Positions 11,769 to 62,073 of a DNA stretch of 64,000 nucleotides are shown in pieces. Location: the NCBI GenBank assembly GCA_963697335.1, contig CAVONQ010000014.1, forward strand, positions 1 through 64,000, given 5' to 3'. The position numbers were made by a program, and so were the translations under genes. Positions within the stretch are counted from its first letter, which is position 1, and the number at the start of each line of letters is the position of its first letter. Below the pieces are notes generated by a model. It worked only from the letters and a program-made list of their open reading frames with translations. It searched no databases and was not told where the DNA came from. Origin of the DNA: an uncultured cyanobacterium. Its GTDB lineage: Bacteria; Cyanobacteriota; Cyanobacteriia; PCC-6307; Cyanobiaceae.

Positions 11769-11842
11769 GCTCCCTTAGCTCAGCTGGATAGAGCAGCTGC
11801 CTTCTAAGCAGCCGGTCGTTGGTTCGAATCCAACAGGGGGCG
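11769..11842 (+). tRNA. tRNA-Arg(TCT)
   Basis: Acceptor stem GCTCCCT/AGGGGGC, D-arm TAGCTCAGCTGGATAGAGC, anticodon arm GCTGC-CTTCTAA-GCAGC, T-loop GTTCGAATC. Confidence 0.97.
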
Positions 11843-33444: not shown

Positions 33445-33515
<71 letters not shown>

Positions 33516-54749: not shown

Positions 54750-55110
54750 GGCGATAAGTCCCTTGGAGAATTCTGAGATTGGCTCGAAGAAGTAGCGCTT
54801 GACAGGAATAGTCAGACCATGAAGCACTGGCCCAAGGAGCTTCGTGAATTTTTGATGCGCTTCGACACGGACCTGATCGATCACGATCAGGTTTCCTCTT
54901 CATGAGTTCAGCCTAGGTCGAAAAGATGGCTCCGCATCACCTGAGCTTTCACCATGCCAGTCAATGACGGATTCCCCTTCCTGCTCTGATCAGCCAGGCA
55001 AGGCCAATCGGTGCATCCAGGCGGGAACCCGCACCAGCTGGCGAGATCCAGGGTCAGTTTCTGAAACCGTGCGAAGAGATCGTTCGGCCCCTCACGGCAA
55101 GCCAGCCTGC

Positions 55111-55503
55111 TCAGCCCAGCGCAGGGGTGCAGAGCTCGACGAGGATGCCCTCCGGTGCGCGCCCATAGGACACCAGCTGCCCCGAGGCTTTCCGTAGGGG
55201 AGCTGACAACTCGGTGGCGCCTTGATCGAGGACTGAGCGATAGGCAGTGGGCACATCGGCTGTCACCAGGGCGATCTCCATGCCCAGGGGCTTGTGGGAG
55301 TCGCTGGCTCGCACGTGGCCTTGAGGTACGTTGCTCTCGCCCAGGCCGTGGGCTGCGAAGGCCAGCGTGGTGTCCCCGGTCGCCAGCTCGCCGTAGTCAC
55401 CGGATTCGTGCCGAAACTTCTGCTGGAGCTGGAAGGCCTGCGTGAAAATTACCATGGAGGCCTCCACGCTTGGCACATCAATAATCACGTATCCGAGTTT
55501 CAT
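55111..55503 (-). CDS. VOC/glyoxalase family protein
   Basis: YGELATGDTTLAF, EIALVTADV, GQLVSY...EGILVELC. Confidence 0.8.
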   Translation of the reverse strand: MKLGYVIIDVPSVEASMVIFTQAFQLQQKFRHESGDYGELATGDTTLAFAAHGLGESNVPQGHVRASDSHKPLGMEIALVTADVPTAYRSVLDQGATELSAPLRKASGQLVSYGRAPEGILVELCTPALG

Positions 55504-55566
55504 CGATGACAGAGGGGTTGGGTGCTTGATTGGCGAGGTGAAGGGCCTTCATGGCCGCTGCCCCCG

Positions 55567-55800
55567 ATGACGCCTCCGCCCAGCCCCCAGCGCTCGACCA
55601 GGCCCACGCCCCACGCACGCGACGACGGGGATGCCGATGACAGGCTTGTGGATCGGGGCATGCCCCTCGGCATGCGGTTGCTGGCCCTGGTGGGGGCGTT
55701 GTCGTTCGTGATGCTGGGCGTGAACAGCCTGCTTCCCGTGTTCCAGGTGCCACCATCCCCCCCTCCGATGCCGGATCGGCGCGACGGCGGATCAGCGTGA
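55567..55800 (+). CDS. Small single-TM hypothetical protein
   Basis: MRLLALVGALSFVMLG hydrophobic segment, Pro-rich tail. Confidence 0.55.
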   Translation: MTPPPSPQRSTRPTPHARDDGDADDRLVDRGMPLGMRLLALVGALSFVMLGVNSLLPVFQVPPSPPPMPDRRDGGSA

Positions 55801-55849
55801 TGGCAACGCCAGCTGAGCTGACGCCCCGTCGCCCTTTGATTGCATCGGC

Positions 55850-56539
55850 ATGAACGACCCCGCCGTCTGGGATCAGCTGCTGCAGCGCTATGTGGACGGT
55901 GACGGCAGGGTGGATTACGCGGGCTGGCAGAGCAGGGATCGCCACACCCTCCACGCCTGGCTGGCCGCTCAGACGGCCCATACGGAAGGCCGCCAGGAGC
56001 AGCTGGCCCACTGGATCAACCTCTACAACGCCTTCACGATCCAGGCCGTGCTGGAGGCCTACCCGATCGCCTCGATTCGCCCCAGCCTGCTGGGGCTGCC
56101 GAACTGGATCGGTTTTCTGCGCTTCTTTCAGCGGCCGGTGCATCGGCTTCAGGACGGTTGCTTCAGCCTGGCCCAGATCGAAAATCAGCTGCTGCGTCAG
56201 CTGGGGGATCCACGCATTCACTTCGCGATCGTGTGTGCCTCGCTGGGTTGTCCGTTGCTCCGCCAGGGCGCCTACCGCGCCGACGGGGTGGAGCAGCAGC
56301 TCGAGGGCGACCTCAGCCGTTTCATCACCAACCCCACCAAGGTGCGCTTCGAGCGGGAGCGCAACATCCTCTGGTGCAGCCGGATCTTCCAGTGGTACCG
56401 GGCTGACTTTCTGGCGGTGAGTGCCTCTCTGCCCAGCTACATCCTGCCGCAGTTGTGTGACGGGCTTGTCCCGGGCCCAGAGCCCCGGGTGCGGTTCCTG
56501 CCCTACGACTGGAGCCTCAATCAGCGGATGTCTTCATAG
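55850..56539 (+). CDS. DUF547-like protein
   Basis: GRVDY, WINLYNA, DPRIHFAIVCASLGCP, SRIFQWY, YDWSLN. Confidence 0.87.
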   Translation: MNDPAVWDQLLQRYVDGDGRVDYAGWQSRDRHTLHAWLAAQTAHTEGRQEQLAHWINLYNAFTIQAVLEAYPIASIRPSLLGLPNWIGFLRFFQRPVHRLQDGCFSLAQIENQLLRQLGDPRIHFAIVCASLGCPLLRQGAYRADGVEQQLEGDLSRFITNPTKVRFERERNILWCSRIFQWYRADFLAVSASLPSYILPQLCDGLVPGPEPRVRFLPYDWSLNQRMSS

Positions 56540-57252
56540 AAGCGCCGCAGGTGACGCGGTGGCAGGCCCAGGCCCCAGAGGATGCCGATGCCGAGATAGG
56601 TGGCCATGGCCTTGCCGGCCCCCCAGGCCCGCACGCGGCGATCGGAGCTCACCACCACCCGGTGGATCAGCCTGATCCTGCCCTGTTTCAGCAGCCTCAG
56701 GCAGAGGTCGCCATCCTCCAGCAGGGGCAGGGCTTCATCAAAGCCACCGCCACTCCAGAAGGTGTGGCGCCGGGTGATCATCACCTGATCGCCAAACAGC
56801 AGCCTCAGCCCCTTCAGGAACTGCAGAGGCCGAAACAGCAGTGGCGCCAGATAGGTTTTGAGCAGGTTCAGCCCCGACACCCCCCAGCAGGTGCGCTGGC
56901 CGGAGCGCATCAGGGACACAAAGCCGGCACAGGCCACCGAGGGATCGGCCAGGGCGCGTTCCGCCACCGCCACAAGATCCGTCGGGATCAGGGTGTCGGC
57001 ATGCAGGAAACAGAGCAGCGCTCCACTGGCCTGGCGGGCACCCTCATTCATCTGCACCGCCCGGCCGGTGGCCGGCGACTGGAGCACCCGCACCCCCGCC
57101 GCCGCGGCAATGGTGGTGGTGTGATCGTGGCTGCCGCCATCCACCACCAGCACCTCCCAGGCCGGTGGGTCGAGGGCCTGCACCCGCTCCAGGGTGCCGG
57201 CCAGGCAGGCGGCCTCATTGAGGGTGGGGATGATGATCGAGAGGCGCTGCAT
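56521..57252 (-). CDS. Family 2 glycosyltransferase (TIGR04283-like)
   Basis: SIIIPTLNEA, VDGGSHD, GRAVQMNEGA, FLHADT, FGDQ, SSDRR. Confidence 0.87.
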   Translation of the reverse strand: MQRLSIIIPTLNEAACLAGTLERVQALDPPAWEVLVVDGGSHDHTTTIAAAAGVRVLQSPATGRAVQMNEGARQASGALLCFLHADTLIPTDLVAVAERALADPSVACAGFVSLMRSGQRTCWGVSGLNLLKTYLAPLLFRPLQFLKGLRLLFGDQVMITRRHTFWSGGGFDEALPLLEDGDLCLRLLKQGRIRLIHRVVVSSDRRVRAWGAGKAMATYLGIGILWGLGLPPRHLRRFYEDIR

Positions 57253-57263
57253 GGGGAGTGCGC

Positions 57264-58487
57264 TCAGGGCCGGCCCACCAGGCCAAAACACGGGCCCAGG
57301 GGGCCCAGGCGCCGGATCAGGCCCTCGTAGAGGCCCACGCTGATCAGCAGGGAGCCGCCGCAGATCAGGGCGAATTTGGCGCCGATGGTGAGCGGCAGCG
57401 GCACCACCCACCAGCCCAGGCCCACCAGCACCGGCTGGTGCAGCAGGTAGAGCGGCATGGCGGCCTTGCTGCCGTAGCGCAGCAGCGGATGGGGCGCCTT
57501 GAGGAAGCGGCGCGCCAGGGCCACCAGGGCCAGCACGGCGCACCAGCTGTTCCAGCCGCGAAAGGCCTGGAACAGCTGGGCGGCACGGGACCCATCGCCC
57601 GCGGCGGGCGTGGCGCCGCAGACCGTGAGGGCCAGGAACACCGCCATGCTCAGCGCCGCCAGGGCCAGGAGGAGCCGGCGATGCCGATCCAGCACCTCCC
57701 AGAGGCCGCTGTGGTGGCAGAAGAGGTAGCCGTAGACGAAATAGAGCAGATACAGCAGCAGATTGGCCCAGTCGTCGTAGAGGTTCTGAAAGCCCGGCCA
57801 GCGGGGCCGCAGCAGGGCCTCCGAGAGCATCAGGGGCAGGGCCAGCAGCAGCACCGAACCCAGACTCACCCGCCAGCCTGGATCCCCTTCAGCTGGGCTG
57901 GGGCTGGCCTGTGTACTCAGCCAGCCCAGCAGCGGCAGGCAGAGCAGGGTGATCACCAGCAGGTAGGCCAGAAACCACAGATGGGCCCACTCGAAGTGAC
58001 CCGCCGGCCGAATCCCATCGAAGAAGTGGGGGTAGAAGCGCAGGTAGCCCAGGGCTGAATCCACGCTCTGCAGTTCGTGCACATACACCTGGGGCGGCAC
58101 CAGCACCAAAATGCCCACGCCCAGGGGCAGCAGCAGCCGTTGCAGGCGTTCCCGCAGGTACGCCCCCGCACCCCGGGCCTGCAGGGAGTACCAGCTCGCC
58201 GAGCCCGCCAGAAAGAAGAAGAAAGGCATATGCCACTGGTGCACCAGCACCAGAAAGCCCCCCAAGGCCCTGCTGCTCTCGGGATTGGTCACATAGAACG
58301 CGCCCAGATCGCCCGCGTAGAAGATCGCCGCGGCGTGGAAGGGAATCAGCAGCAGCACCGCCAGCACGCGGGCGCCGTCGAGGGCATGGCAGCGGAGATG
58401 GCCCACACCAGGCGTCGCTGCCGGGCCATCGACAGGGAGAAGGGCCAGGGGGCGGCGGCCATGGCGGCGGAGGCGCATCGATGTCAT
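57264..58487 (-). CDS. Acyltransferase family 3 (OpgC/MdoC-like) membrane protein
   Basis: LDGAR, FH, MPFFFFLAG, RLQRLLLP, HLWFL, YLLHQP. Confidence 0.87.
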   Translation of the reverse strand: MTSMRLRRHGRRPLALLPVDGPAATPGVGHLRCHALDGARVLAVLLLIPFHAAAIFYAGDLGAFYVTNPESSRALGGFLVLVHQWHMPFFFFLAGSASWYSLQARGAGAYLRERLQRLLLPLGVGILVLVPPQVYVHELQSVDSALGYLRFYPHFFDGIRPAGHFEWAHLWFLAYLLVITLLCLPLLGWLSTQASPSPAEGDPGWRVSLGSVLLLALPLMLSEALLRPRWPGFQNLYDDWANLLLYLLYFVYGYLFCHHSGLWEVLDRHRRLLLALAALSMAVFLALTVCGATPAAGDGSRAAQLFQAFRGWNSWCAVLALVALARRFLKAPHPLLRYGSKAAMPLYLLHQPVLVGLGWWVVPLPLTIGAKFALICGGSLLISVGLYEGLIRRLGPLGPCFGLVGRP

Positions 58488-58526
58488 CGCTTTACGCGCT
58501 TAGGCACATGATGCGTCTTGATTGGA

Positions 58527-59000
58527 TCAGGGGATCGCGACGCAGGCGAACTCGCTCCAGCGGCGTTCCACCAGCTCAAAGCAGGCCGGAGGCGCCGCGG
58601 GCAGCTTCCTGAGCAGGGCGATCAGCTCAGGCCCATGGCCACTCAGCAGCAGCACCAGTTCCCGCGCCGGGTCGTAGCTGTCCAGGGCTCCCAGACTCGG
58701 ACGGATCGCCGCGGGCCCCAGCCCCTGTCGGCGCAGCTGGGCAGCCACCTGGCCGCGCTCGACGTACTGGCAGCTGAAGGGCACTCCCTGCAGGCGCCAG
58801 TCGTGCTGAGGGCCGATTGGCGCAGCCAGGTGACAGATCAGCAGCCCTCGCCCGCCGGCCCGGAAGCCCCGCCAGGCGGCGTGGCCGATCAGCAGGCTGT
58901 TCTGCTCCAGAAAGCGCGGCTCCCAGGCCCCATGGCATCCCGACCCCTGGCCATGCCCGGGCATGGGCCCCCGCCAGGGCAGCGACTCAGGCCACGGCAT
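58527..59000 (-). CDS. Hypothetical protein
   Basis: ORF overlaps the desaturase stop; AWRGFRAGGRG...YDPARE...PPACFE; start uncertain. Confidence 0.65.
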   Translation of the reverse strand: MPWPESLPWRGPMPGHGQGSGCHGAWEPRFLEQNSLLIGHAAWRGFRAGGRGLLICHLAAPIGPQHDWRLQGVPFSCQYVERGQVAAQLRRQGLGPAAIRPSLGALDSYDPARELVLLLSGHGPELIALLRKLPAAPPACFELVERRWSEFACVAIP

Positions 59001-60012
59001 CGGCCTGCCCCGGTCGCGGCACCAGGCGCTCTTCCACCTGATCCCAGAGCATGAACCGCGCACAACCGAGCATGTCGCCCAGGCGCAGGGTGGGCACATC
59101 GGCCAGCAGATGGGCATTGGCCTTGTGGGCCGCCCGCAGGTTGTAGTTGGGAATGCGCTCCGAGAGGTGATGGATGTTGTGGTAGCCGATGTCGGCCGTG
59201 AACCAGCGCAGCAAGGCCGGCAGTTGCAGATAGCTGGTGCCATCCAGGGCTCCCTGCAGATGGCTCCAGCCCTCGGTGTTGTGGGCATAGGAGCCCTCGA
59301 AGATGTGCTGCACGAAGAAGATCCAGATAAAAATCGCCGCCGAGCAGGCCAGGGTCACCCCGTAGAGCCCCAGCACCAGGCCGAAACCCCAGCGCTGCCC
59401 CGCCAGGATCAACAGGCCGATCACCGCCACGTTGTTCAGCAGCAGATCCCAGAACTCAGCCGAGCGCGGCATGGCCTGGGCCCGGATCGCTCGGGAGAGC
59501 GCCTTCAGCAGCTCCAGCCTGGGCTGGATGGCGAGATAGTAAAAACCGCCCGGAATCCCCATCAGCGGATGGCGCAGCAGCCCATAGGTGGCCTGCTGCC
59601 TGGCACTGAGCTGGGCGTAGTCCGCTGTGGTGATCAGGTCAGTGACGCCGCGATAGCGCTCCCAGTCGCCATTGGTGCGGTGGTGGAAGGCGTGGTCGTT
59701 GGACCAGGCCAGCTGGGGGATGGCATTCACCAGCCCCAGGGTGAAGCCACCCACCCGGTTGAGCCAGCGGCTGCGGAACAGGGAATGGTGACCGCAGTCA
59801 TGCATCAGGGAGAAGCAGCGCAGCGAGAACAGCACCAGGGGAATCACCAGCAGGGGCAAGGCCCAGACCGCCCGCTGGGCGGCCTCAATGGCCAGGGCCC
59901 AGCAGGCCAGATAGGGGCCCACGGCGCTGAGGATCTGGAAGGCGCCGCGCCAATTGCTGCTGCGGGCGTAGGGGGCCAGGACGAAGTCGGCTGGCCGAAG
60001 ATTGGTGATCAT
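58987..60012 (-). CDS. Membrane fatty-acid desaturase
   Basis: His boxes HDCGH, HAFHH, (VQH) and HNIHH...IPNYNL. Confidence 0.92.
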   Translation of the reverse strand: MITNLRPADFVLAPYARSSNWRGAFQILSAVGPYLACWALAIEAAQRAVWALPLLVIPLVLFSLRCFSLMHDCGHHSLFRSRWLNRVGGFTLGLVNAIPQLAWSNDHAFHHRTNGDWERYRGVTDLITTADYAQLSARQQATYGLLRHPLMGIPGGFYYLAIQPRLELLKALSRAIRAQAMPRSAEFWDLLLNNVAVIGLLILAGQRWGFGLVLGLYGVTLACSAAIFIWIFFVQHIFEGSYAHNTEGWSHLQGALDGTSYLQLPALLRWFTADIGYHNIHHLSERIPNYNLRAAHKANAHLLADVPTLRLGDMLGCARFMLWDQVEERLVPRPGQADAVA

Positions 60013-60189
60013 GCAGGGGGGCGAAGGGACAAGGCCGAGGCGGGGCCCATGGGAGCCATGGCCGGGCCATGGGGCTCTCGATCGGGCGGAGTGAACGTCT
60101 GCGGCGCGTCTCAGCGCCCCTCCAGGCCCTGGCAGGCCGACAGGGGATGGGATCCGGTGCTGGAAGGAAAGGCTGTGCTCATCGTGAAA

Positions 60190-60372
60190 CCCGGTCCGCG
60201 CCGGGAGAGAGGGGGCTGATCACAACGGCGAGCGTTCTGACTGAGGGGTGCTCCCCTGAGCGAACCCCATCACAGCTGCGGGACAGCGCCGGAGTCGCAG
60301 AGGGTCCAAGAACCCTCTCCCCACCGGACTTTCCTCCTTGCGTCCAGGGTGTGAACCACTGGAACCGTCACC
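60190..60372 (-). ncRNA. Cobalamin riboswitch upstream of the desaturase
   Basis: GGTTCC...AGGAAAGTCCGGTG...ACTCCGGCGCTGTCCCGCAGCTGTGA...AGTCAGAACGCTCGCC (B12 box), then hairpin CCCGG-CGCGGA-CCGGG. Confidence 0.9.
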
Positions 60373-60413
60373 CCATTCTGGTCAGGATGGACTGGAACTG
60401 ACGCATCAGGCGT

Positions 60414-61022
60414 TCAGCGGGCTCCCAGGGCGATCGGGCCGAGCGTCAGGGCTGCGCCAGCCAGGGCGAGCAGCAGGGCCACGGCGGCGGTCCAGCGGCT
60501 GGGCAGCCGCCGCAGCACCAGGTAGCTGCTGCCGCTCACCAGCAGCGAGGCGCAGAAGGCCCCCGCCCACCACAGGGCTGAGGCGGCACCGGCCGGAGCC
60601 TCCTGCCCATGGAGCATGGCGTGCACCGCCACGGCGGTGGCAATCAGGGCGCCGCACAGCCCCAGGGCCGGAGCCCGCGGCGACTGGTGGCTGCGCAGCA
60701 CCAGCAGGGCCACCGCTGGGATGGCCAGGGCCGCCAGCAGCTCGGCACCGGGCAGGCCGCCGCCCATGGCGCCGAACACGCCTCCGGCCAGGGCACCCAC
60801 CAGCCCCCAGAGCAGCAGTTCGGCCGAGAGGTAGGAGGCCGCGGCGCCAACGGCGATCAGCAGCAGCAGATGATCGGTGCCGGCCAGGGGGTGCAGGAAG
60901 CCTCCCGCCAGGCCGCCTGAGGCCACGCTGTGGGCCTGGGCGGGCTGGCCCAGGAGCAGGGTCGTGGCAGTGGCGAGGGCCACCAGAAGGCCGAGGGAGC
61001 GGCTGGAGCGGAGGTGTTGCAT
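60414..61022 (-). CDS. hupE: HupE/UreJ family Co/Ni transporter
   Basis: Signal peptide AQAH, GFLHPLAGTDHLL, HAMLHGQE. Confidence 0.92.
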   Translation of the reverse strand: MQHLRSSRSLGLLVALATATTLLLGQPAQAHSVASGGLAGGFLHPLAGTDHLLLLIAVGAAASYLSAELLLWGLVGALAGGVFGAMGGGLPGAELLAALAIPAVALLVLRSHQSPRAPALGLCGALIATAVAVHAMLHGQEAPAGAASALWWAGAFCASLLVSGSSYLVLRRLPSRWTAAVALLLALAGAALTLGPIALGAR

Positions 61023-61029
61023 GGATTCT

Positions 61030-61177
61030 CCCGGTTTCCGCGCCGGGCAGGAAAGAACTCAAAGCGGCGAGCGTTCTGGCTCAGGAGCAGGTCTCTCCTT
61101 CACAGCTGCGGGACAGCGCCGGAGTTGCACCGGACTTTCCTCGTTGCCTTCCGGGCCTGAGCCACGGAAACCACTCC
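61030..61177 (-). ncRNA. Cobalamin riboswitch upstream of hupE
   Basis: AGGAAAGTCCGGTGCAACTCCGGCGCTGTCCCGCAGCTGTGA...AGCCAGAACGCTCGCC, then hairpin CCCGG-CGCGGAAA-CCGGG before the ATG. Confidence 0.93.
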
Positions 61178-61223
61178 TCCCCCATTGTGCTCCTGCCACG
61201 GGGATTCGGCCGCAGCCCACTGC

Positions 61224-61787
61224 TCAGGGATTCAGCCCTTCCTCGCGCCAGCCGTGCTCAAGGCGCCAGCGGCGGCGCCGGTGGGGGTGGCCCCCCAGCT
61301 CCAGCAGCTCCACCTGCTCCAGCTGGATCTGCAGCAGCTGAAAGTGGGGTGGCAGCGGTGTGTCGTCGTCGAGGGTGGCGGGGAAGGCGGCTCCGGGCTC
61401 CAGGGGCGCCCCCGGTTCGGGCCAGCCCCAGAGGGCCCGGCCGCCGGGGCTGAGGGCCTGCCAGTGCCTCAGCCGTGCTGCCCCATCGGCCGCCGCATCG
61501 GGGGCGAGCACGCGCCCCCGCAGACGGAACTGGCTGCGGGCCCTCACCAGCAGCCAGCAGAGCTCCACGGCCGGCTGCCGGTGCAGTTCAGCGGCCTTGG
61601 CGCTGCGGCCATCAGTGAGCAGCTCCAGCACGCTGCCCTCCGCCCAGCCGCGGAACACCAGGGTGCGCACCCGGGGGGTGCCATCGGTGGCCACGCTGGC
61701 CAGCTGCAGCCAGCGGGCCGCCGGGGAGCGTCCTTCGCGCTGACGTGCTGCCCGCAGCAGGGGGCGCCAGGGGGCGAGTTCGATCAC
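61224..61787 (-). CDS. Pyridoxamine 5'-phosphate oxidase family protein
   Basis: QLASVATDGTPRVRTLVFRG, TDGRSAK, QFRLRG, LNP terminus. Confidence 0.85.
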   Translation of the reverse strand: MIELAPWRPLLRAARQREGRSPAARWLQLASVATDGTPRVRTLVFRGWAEGSVLELLTDGRSAKAAELHRQPAVELCWLLVRARSQFRLRGRVLAPDAAADGAARLRHWQALSPGGRALWGWPEPGAPLEPGAAFPATLDDDTPLPPHFQLLQIQLEQVELLELGGHPHRRRRWRLEHGWREEGLNP

Positions 61788-61815
61788 ACCATCCCAGCGT
61801 CACGCCGCCCCACCC

Positions 61816-62073
61816 TCACGCCGGTTGGGCCTGGCGGCGCTGGAAGGCGAGGGCCCCACCGCCCACGGCCGCCAGCCCGAGACCTCCCGCCACGGCCAGA
61901 AACACCAGCGTCTGCAGGGCCAGCAGAAAGAGCCCCAGGGCCGAGGCGGCCTTGATCTGGATGCGGGCCTTGATCAGCAGCGTGAGCAGCAGCAGCACCG
62001 TGGCCTGCAGGCCGGCGGCCTTGGCGGCGAGGGCCGCGGTGGTGAGGAGACCGAAGGGACAGGGAAGCAGCAT
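61816..62073 (-). CDS. Small hydrophobic hypothetical protein
   Basis: 85-aa hydrophobic ORF filling the gap between phoX and the PPOX-family gene. Confidence 0.4.
   Translation of the reverse strand: MLLPCPFGLLTTAALAAKAAGLQATVLLLLTLLIKARIQIKAASALGLFLLALQTLVFLAVAGGLGLAAVGGGALAFQRRQAQPA

Follow-up and report, generated by a model that had tools for sequence, protein, structure and literature searches.

We analysed a window of 64,000 nucleotides (nt) from an uncultured cyanobacterium of the family Cyanobiaceae (assembly GCA_963697335.1, contig CAVONQ010000014.1, positions 1 to 64,000 of the forward strand), with attention to its second cobalamin (B12) riboswitch, RS2, and the genes behind it. 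Sequence comparisons incline us, with a little better than even confidence, to the view that RS2 heads a unit of two genes, encoding a membrane di-iron desaturase and a small protein with a CcmS-like fold, and that this unit is likely controlled by B12/methionine status, with induction at low cobalamin. Together the two genes probably belong to a low-B12 response that has not been described; in the window they make up what is apparently a two-gene branch, new to the literature, of the cyanobacterial B12 regulon. The strongest argument is that RS2 and, in other genomes, MetR-like sensors are kept beside these genes where the methionine synthase MetE was not found, so that the pair itself would be their target.

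Phytoplankton is limited by cobalt and B12, and the cyanobacterial B12 regulon, as known so far, consists of transporters and metE. Our analysis adds to it a desaturase and an unnamed but widespread family of proteins, found in 121 of 401 genomes (~30%). It also puts forward a candidate for the question left from 2007, namely which B12-dependent reaction a desaturase could replace.

The RS2 aptamer and its leader

RS2 (60384-60210; all features of the unit lie on the minus strand) matches the Rfam family RF00174 over the full length of the model (positions 1-189), scoring 45.3 bits (E 3.8e-8; cut-off 31.5), and carries an extra stem in the P4 loop. The initial annotation had reported a complete B12 riboswitch at 60372-60190, starting about 40 bp past hupE, and both statements are borne out: this span begins with the first helix and ends with a hairpin that has a Shine-Dalgarno (SD)-like motif, and its start lies 41 nt beyond the hupE stop codon (60414). 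Compared with genome G012, the aptamer is 98% identical (152/155), whereas identity is 81% at four-fold sites of the desaturase (135/167) and 64/123 in the spacer. Compensatory changes were seen at 7 of 51 predicted pairs among five sequences. By these comparisons the aptamer is under selection. Switches orthologous to RS2 are found in G511, G475 and G448.

Directly behind the aptamer lies a small hairpin (60190-60205, -8.0 kcal/mol, 16/16 identical in G012), the putative expression platform, whose loop contains an SD-like GGA. The loop sequence GCGG is complementary to CCGC within the aptamer, a pairing judged by sequence alone, and presumably acts as the kissing loop of class-I cobalamin switches. 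Seven nt past the hairpin follows a start codon at 60182, which opens a leader open reading frame (ORF) of 23 codons (60111-60182); the desaturase is in another frame, its ATG lying 170 nt 3' of the leader ATG. The picture in the initial annotation of a riboswitch pointing straight into the desaturase therefore has to be given up, and control of the desaturase by RS2 is predicted to be indirect. The leader start position is shared by G012, G511 and G475. The leader ORF showed no match in comparisons with metE and with a 202-aa membrane protein described below, and the leader of RS2 folds no better than shuffled sequences (z 0.98).

The layout of switch, short leader ORF and gap is that of cyanobacterial metE leaders. 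We surveyed the first 150 nt past each switch at loci of the CcmS-fold protein family (L134-L213). In 48 of the 54 cases with the gene for this protein next, the start codon of the switch begins an ORF no longer than 49 codons; the same holds for 10 of 11 switches followed by metE or its remnant, and with cbiM next the start codon opens the full gene in all seven. Another seven switches yielded no motif. The leader peptides show no sequence conservation, and no consistent terminator site emerged when six metE leaders were searched. Many such switches thus open a short leader ORF and not the enzyme gene, which calls for a mechanism. According to a review, a metE switch is reported to be active in vivo in Synechococcus 7002, with cobalamin attenuation at the metE promoter (PMC8123684), and in Limnospira a switch was placed 337 bp 5' of metE (PMC8400943).

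The scan with Rfam cobalamin models that the initial annotation had suggested called two switches over the cut-off in the window; the genome has three in total, the third 5' of cbiM. The first, RS1 (61049-61190, RF00174, 53.5 bits), lies directly 5' of its target hupE (60414-61022), of the HupE/UreJ Ni/Co transporter family (PF04955, E 2e-14). The ATG of hupE comes after the RS1 hairpin, and the matching ATG of RS2 is the leader start at 60182. No site was called in a sigma-70 promoter scan of 55000-62000. A -10-like hexamer just 5' of RS2 (60380-60375; CAGAAT in the window, CATAAT in G511, in the same place in L232 and L233) nevertheless suggests that RS2 may have its own promoter.

Desaturase and its linkage to cobalamin switches

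The desaturase (58987-60012, 341 aa) belongs to PF00487 (102.8 bits, cut-off 29.7). Its best NCBIfam match is the Bacillus Delta5 DesA equivalog NF052548, with which it has in common three His boxes and the membrane di-iron fold; its score of 219.8 bits lies under the curated cut-off of 500, which marks it as a relative, not a member, of that family. Across 55 sequences, the boxes HDCGHH, HAFHH and HNIHH show little or no variation. The structure model (pLDDT 87.7) has AlkB among its fold matches; acyl-lipid desaturation is thus a predicted activity, and the modelled fold would also be compatible with AlkB. No solved structure of a sequence relative was found. The protein could not be mapped to the names DesA2, DesA3 and DesA4 in use for picocyanobacteria; published control of desA3 and desA4 is by temperature and salt, B12 not being among the factors in the accessible part of that paper (PMC12834511).

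Among the matches listed, orthologues of the desaturase occur in 104 of 401 cyanobacterial genomes. The initial annotation had proposed to look for riboswitch-desaturase linkage across cyanobacteria, and the linkage recurs. At 95 loci, drawn from 111 genomes with a match, an Rfam-level switch lies 5' of the desaturase in at least 18, on the same strand, 0.2-3.6 kb away and in seven families; this is a lower bound, as the switch scans scored 31-45 candidates per genome. The chance of finding a switch within 3.6 kb 5' of a given gene is roughly 0.0007. Weak or half switches occur at four further loci. In 16 of the 18 switch-bearing loci the gene for the CcmS-fold protein is within the examined stretch. 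On a quick tree, the label for switch presence takes 13 changes, at least nine of them forced by well-supported branches; of the rows in the tree, L115 and L050 are bad, and presence was also scored for three switches that are weak or partial. Either the link is old and was often lost, or it was gained repeatedly; the tree does not discriminate between the two.

Two gene orders are common. The first is switch, metE or its remnant (optional), one or two hypothetical genes, desaturase and a methyltransferase that, by similarity, is probably of the MPBQ/MSBQ type; the scans show a class-I S-adenosylmethionine (SAM) methyltransferase and nothing finer. The second is switch, desaturase, optional methyltransferase and hypothetical gene, and the window has this order minus the methyltransferase. 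In five genomes checked, the switch-linked methyltransferase is an extra copy in two, and in three no other close copy was found. At six loci (L046, L056, L081, L084, L088 and L097) the desaturase lies directly 5' of such a methyltransferase even without a switch, at some together with a UbiH-type hydroxylase, and this neighbourhood hints at a link to prenylquinone chemistry. All that is left of the cobalamin switch in G387 and G255 (L104, L105) is its 5' half, 38-39 nt 5' of the desaturase start, and at L067 (G181) an apparent insertion-sequence end lies within the 690-nt leader between switch and desaturase.

The remark in the initial annotation that no described case was known proved too strong. 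In the accessible text of Kazanov et al. 2007 (PMC2211319), a COG1398 (Ole1-type) desaturase lies under a B12 switch, and an isozyme pair is proposed. That report shares with ours a desaturase behind a B12 switch and the isozyme hypothesis; it concerns one soil fragment and the Ole1/Delta9 family, without operon analysis, whereas the desaturase of the window is of the Bacillus-DesA-like family and recurs in seven cyanobacterial families. No link between B12 and a desaturase was found in the accessible parts of PMC12834511, PMC13603067 and PMC9313322. In the openly accessible literature we found no description of the switch-desaturase-hypothetical operon, of the small protein family or of a MetR-desaturase linkage.

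A small protein with a CcmS-like fold

The second gene of the unit (58527-59000) encodes a protein of 157 aa that belongs to an unnamed cyanobacterial family (321 homologues in 202 clusters) and serves as the marker of the B12/MetR unit. It has no Pfam match, and none was found for seven scanned homologues. Against G012 the gene shows 34 synonymous and 23 non-synonymous codon changes. The AlphaFold model (pLDDT 83) matches only CcmS (Slr1911; PDB 8ZLH, 9IUR, 9IV7), the assembly chaperone of beta-carboxysomes (Foldseek E 5.7e-7; VIA Z 8.9, rmsd 3.3-3.4, 109-110 residues aligned). Identity to CcmS is 16-22%, at an rmsd of 3.3-4.6, the gene context is different and the profile match of the family to Slr1911 is weak (E 1.2). 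By its model, then, the protein is a fold relative of CcmS only, and a common fold shows no function. Picocyanobacteria use alpha-carboxysomes, which are not known to contain CcmK1, so its partner would have to differ from that of CcmS. A GNAT acetyltransferase (ESM Atlas 0.94; 145 shared features) was rejected as a candidate, since the predicted fold is that of CcmS and there is no GNAT match.

For the survey of this family, the best 80 of 178 GTDB loci were examined, and switches were called by an nhmmer profile of our own, built from 19 switches called by Rfam. A switch lies 5' of the gene at 75 of the 80 loci; the five misses are near contig ends, with 0.2-1.2 kb of upstream DNA. Among the genes behind the switch are metE, intact or as a remnant, at 16 loci, a desaturase of either family at 27 (DesA-type at 10, DesC-type at 18) and SAM methyltransferases at 58, of which nine are CFA-synthase-like; genes for CobW and DUF1636 proteins also occur. 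The DesC/Ole1-type genes at these 18 loci may be what Kazanov et al. saw. The operons of relatives join the same genes with metE, cobW and DUF1636, under the same RNA family as in the metE-type B12 regulon. Behind RS2, by contrast, there is no transporter, B12-synthesis gene or known isozyme.

Two further gene sets were observed behind such switches. At L199 (6434-7300) and 34 similar, Microcoleus-like loci, switch and 157-aa gene head a gene for a 288-aa SAM methyltransferase, behind which genes for an ECF-type ATPase, an ABM-domain protein and DinB often lie. A 202-aa membrane protein without Pfam or NCBIfam match is encoded directly behind cobalamin switches at L188 (4456-5064), L165, L078 and, in broken form, L042; it is a candidate cobalt/B12 carrier.

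MetR-like regulators at the same genes

The family of the window comprises 13 copies of the 157-aa gene in 12 of 351 genomes. Five (G000, G012, G511, G475 and G448) are in the order switch-desaturase-hypothetical. The other eight stand head-to-head with a LysR-type gene, and the desaturase is next in six of these. We grade these regulators, by sequence, as MetR-like and not as MetR; in each of three proteins scanned, MetR was the best family by more than 85 bits. All MetR-like genes found in the 351 genomes, eight in number, are beside the 157-aa gene (L036, L110, L111 and L235-L239, in G008, G240, G423, G660, G653, G460 and G544), and they fall into two lineages that are 36% identical. G423 has two pairs of MetR-like and 157-aa genes, one of which adjoins a riboswitch-hupE unit.

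The MetR box has the consensus TGAA-N5-TTCA. A site with one mismatch to it was found at all eight divergent promoters (shuffle mean 0.02-0.09), overlapping the first codons of the regulator itself. MetR senses homocysteine, which builds up when B12-dependent methionine synthase stalls. The arrangement resembles the MetR-metE divergon of proteobacteria in that a MetR-like gene faces the hypothetical gene, with or without the desaturase, in seven picocyanobacterial genomes. It differs in that metE is absent from these loci, and in that the window itself has no MetR. MetE was searched for in the 12 genomes and not found, two of them being 80-86% complete, while two control genomes were positive.

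The host is a picocyanobacterium whose closest named protein relatives come from Cyanobium. The genome of the window has cobQ and, as B12 users, an NrdJ-type reductase, an HpnP-like DUF4070 enzyme and a Slr0320-type enzyme; a B12-binding frame of 1244 codons is presumably MetH. None of these users is a recognised counterpart of the desaturase, and we know of no B12-dependent counterpart for it. The position of the 157-aa family behind two sensors of B12/methionine status is the first testable clue to its function.

Proposed role of the pair and alternatives

In the scheme that we favour, the unit would be switched on when cobalamin is low and B12-dependent methionine synthesis falters. With (pseudo)cobalamin bound, the kissing loop would form and cover the site at which ribosomes enter the leader ORF of 23 codons, and with leader translation lost, expression of the desaturase and its partner would be cut via attenuation or decay; cyanobacteria are not known to have Rho. 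At low B12 the O2-dependent di-iron enzyme would place a double bond in membrane acyl chains. This could tune the membrane without methyl-group cost or, in other lineages, supply the alkene for co-regulated SAM methyltransferases. The CcmS-fold protein may, by its fold, be a peptide-binding helper.

A bolder version, which we hold to be rather unlikely, would see here a B12/methionine-starvation programme marked by the CcmS-fold protein, run by two unrelated sensors and kept without MetE. O2-dependent desaturation would in it replace lipid methylation that is hungry for B12 and SAM, and the switch would act through a short leader ORF as Rho-free control of the whole operon. If this were true, HpnP-like DUF4070 enzymes would gain a lipid substrate and the make-up of membrane lipids would be tied to cobalt supply.

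The desaturase could instead be a strict bypass of a B12-dependent radical-SAM lipid methylase, in line with the stand-in for a B12-dependent reaction that the initial annotation had offered as an example; we consider this explanation unlikely. It would account for the recruitment of two desaturase families to the regulon, the DesC-type with a CFA-synthase-like gene after it at nine of the 80 loci. The HpnP-like DUF4070 enzyme encoded in the genome of the window would be a suitable methylase, and in G043 such an enzyme is encoded just 5' of the desaturase. These enzymes are called uncharacterised in cyanobacteria in the accessible text of PMC10697835, and the isozyme idea itself is that of PMC2211319. 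Yet the units of the window and other picocyanobacteria have no methyltransferase in the operon, adjacency to DUF4070 does not recur in four or more of the 95 loci, and control by MetR-like proteins suggests a response to methionine status and not to one B12 enzyme.

Several observations weigh against B12 control of the pair. At 73 of the 95 desaturase loci there is no switch signal of any kind (seven of them with less than 1.5 kb upstream), so the desaturase also has a B12-independent life. About half of the 80 loci of the 157-aa family come from close Microcoleus/Oscillatoriales kin, some genomes are common to the 95- and 80-locus surveys, and the switches at the 80 loci rest on our own profile and not on Rfam. 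The three regulators scanned reached 220, 190 and 189 bits with the MetR model PRK15421, under its cut-off of 382. In the window the start of the desaturase is not gated directly by RS2, the sequence and stop of the leader ORF are conserved only as far as G012 and a search of the RS2 leader for a U-tailed terminator found none, which together leave the coupling between RS2 and desaturase unexplained.

Points of this kind would also fit a history of leftovers, in which the pair was carried along within an operon of metE or of a transporter, the leader ORF is the stump of the first gene and an old promoter is retained with little or no B12 control. The initial annotation had allowed for something similar, the deletion of a B12 gene in front of an unrelated desaturase. 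In several relatives remnants of metE or of the membrane protein do lie between switch and pair, and the half-switches of G387 and G255, the variable leader peptides and the many switchless orthologues would all be expected from decay. The desaturase, however, is no bystander. The aptamer is conserved far beyond neutral sites with only the pair behind it, a short leader ORF also precedes intact metE, and two distant MetR-like lineages are kept beside the hypothetical gene where MetE was not found. We therefore regard a mere relic as improbable, and a unit responsive to B12/methionine status remains our preferred explanation.

Downstream genes

Two more genes follow on the same strand, a family-3 acyltransferase (AT3) frame of 407 aa (57264-58487, PF01757, with true homology from ~58394) and a glycosyltransferase, GT2 (56521-57252, TIGR04283, 200.9 bits, cut-off 182); both are outside the conserved unit. 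The initial annotation had identified all four genes correctly (PF00487, a hypothetical without Pfam match, PF01757 and TIGR04283) and suggested a B12-repressed lipid or envelope module. A four-gene, B12-repressed envelope-modification module serving one pathway seems to us very improbable. The genes do share a strand with short gaps, no terminator was called from the stop of the hypothetical gene to the acr3 remnant described below, and G012 has the same order plus acr3. What stands of the module is its first half, as desaturase and hypothetical gene recur in switch operons; AT3 and GT2, on the other hand, accompany the desaturase at one of 95 loci (G012) and the hypothetical gene at none of 80. 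They are missing at the three other switch-desaturase-hypothetical loci of the window's family (two on short contigs). Within the genus, AT3 was detected in 5 of 32 genomes, and in G002 it occurs with GT2 and DUF547, the desaturase and the hypothetical gene not being found in that genome. By these comparisons the four-gene unit is largely refuted as a conserved module.

The junction itself is a deletion scar. In G012 an intact acr3/SBF-like gene (PF01758; TIGR00832 under cut-off) lies between hypothetical gene and AT3. In the window ~1 kb has been deleted between short repeats, and a 5' remnant of the transporter gene of ~26 codons (58385-58462, delimited by alignment with G012 and outside the B12 unit) is fused to the body of AT3, which lacks its native first 12 codons and takes its first 31 codons from the remnant region. 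A contig from other sequencing reads (X7) matches 56984-58395 and then continues for ~1 kb with sequence that differs from the window, in agreement with a deletion. The spacings in the initial annotation are right as numbers, with an overlap of 14 nt and gaps of 39 and 11 nt, but the 39-nt gap really precedes the acr3-like gene deleted here.

AT3 and GT2 probably come from a separate block of acr3-like gene, AT3, GT2 and DUF547 and are likely unrelated neighbours of the pair, reached at most by passive read-through. By its NCBIfam names only, such as 'arsenosugar biosynthesis' for TIGR04283, the block looks arsenic-related. The 3' ends of GT2 and of the DUF547 gene that converges on it share 19 nt (56521-56539), and G012 and G002 have this convergent pair too. 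The stretch 5' of the acr3 remnant (58530-58465) is AT-richer and holds an imperfect inverted repeat in G012; our guess is that the repeat could serve the arsenic-like block as operator or promoter. Elsewhere in the window, two tRNA genes are on the plus strand (11769-11842 and 33445-33515).

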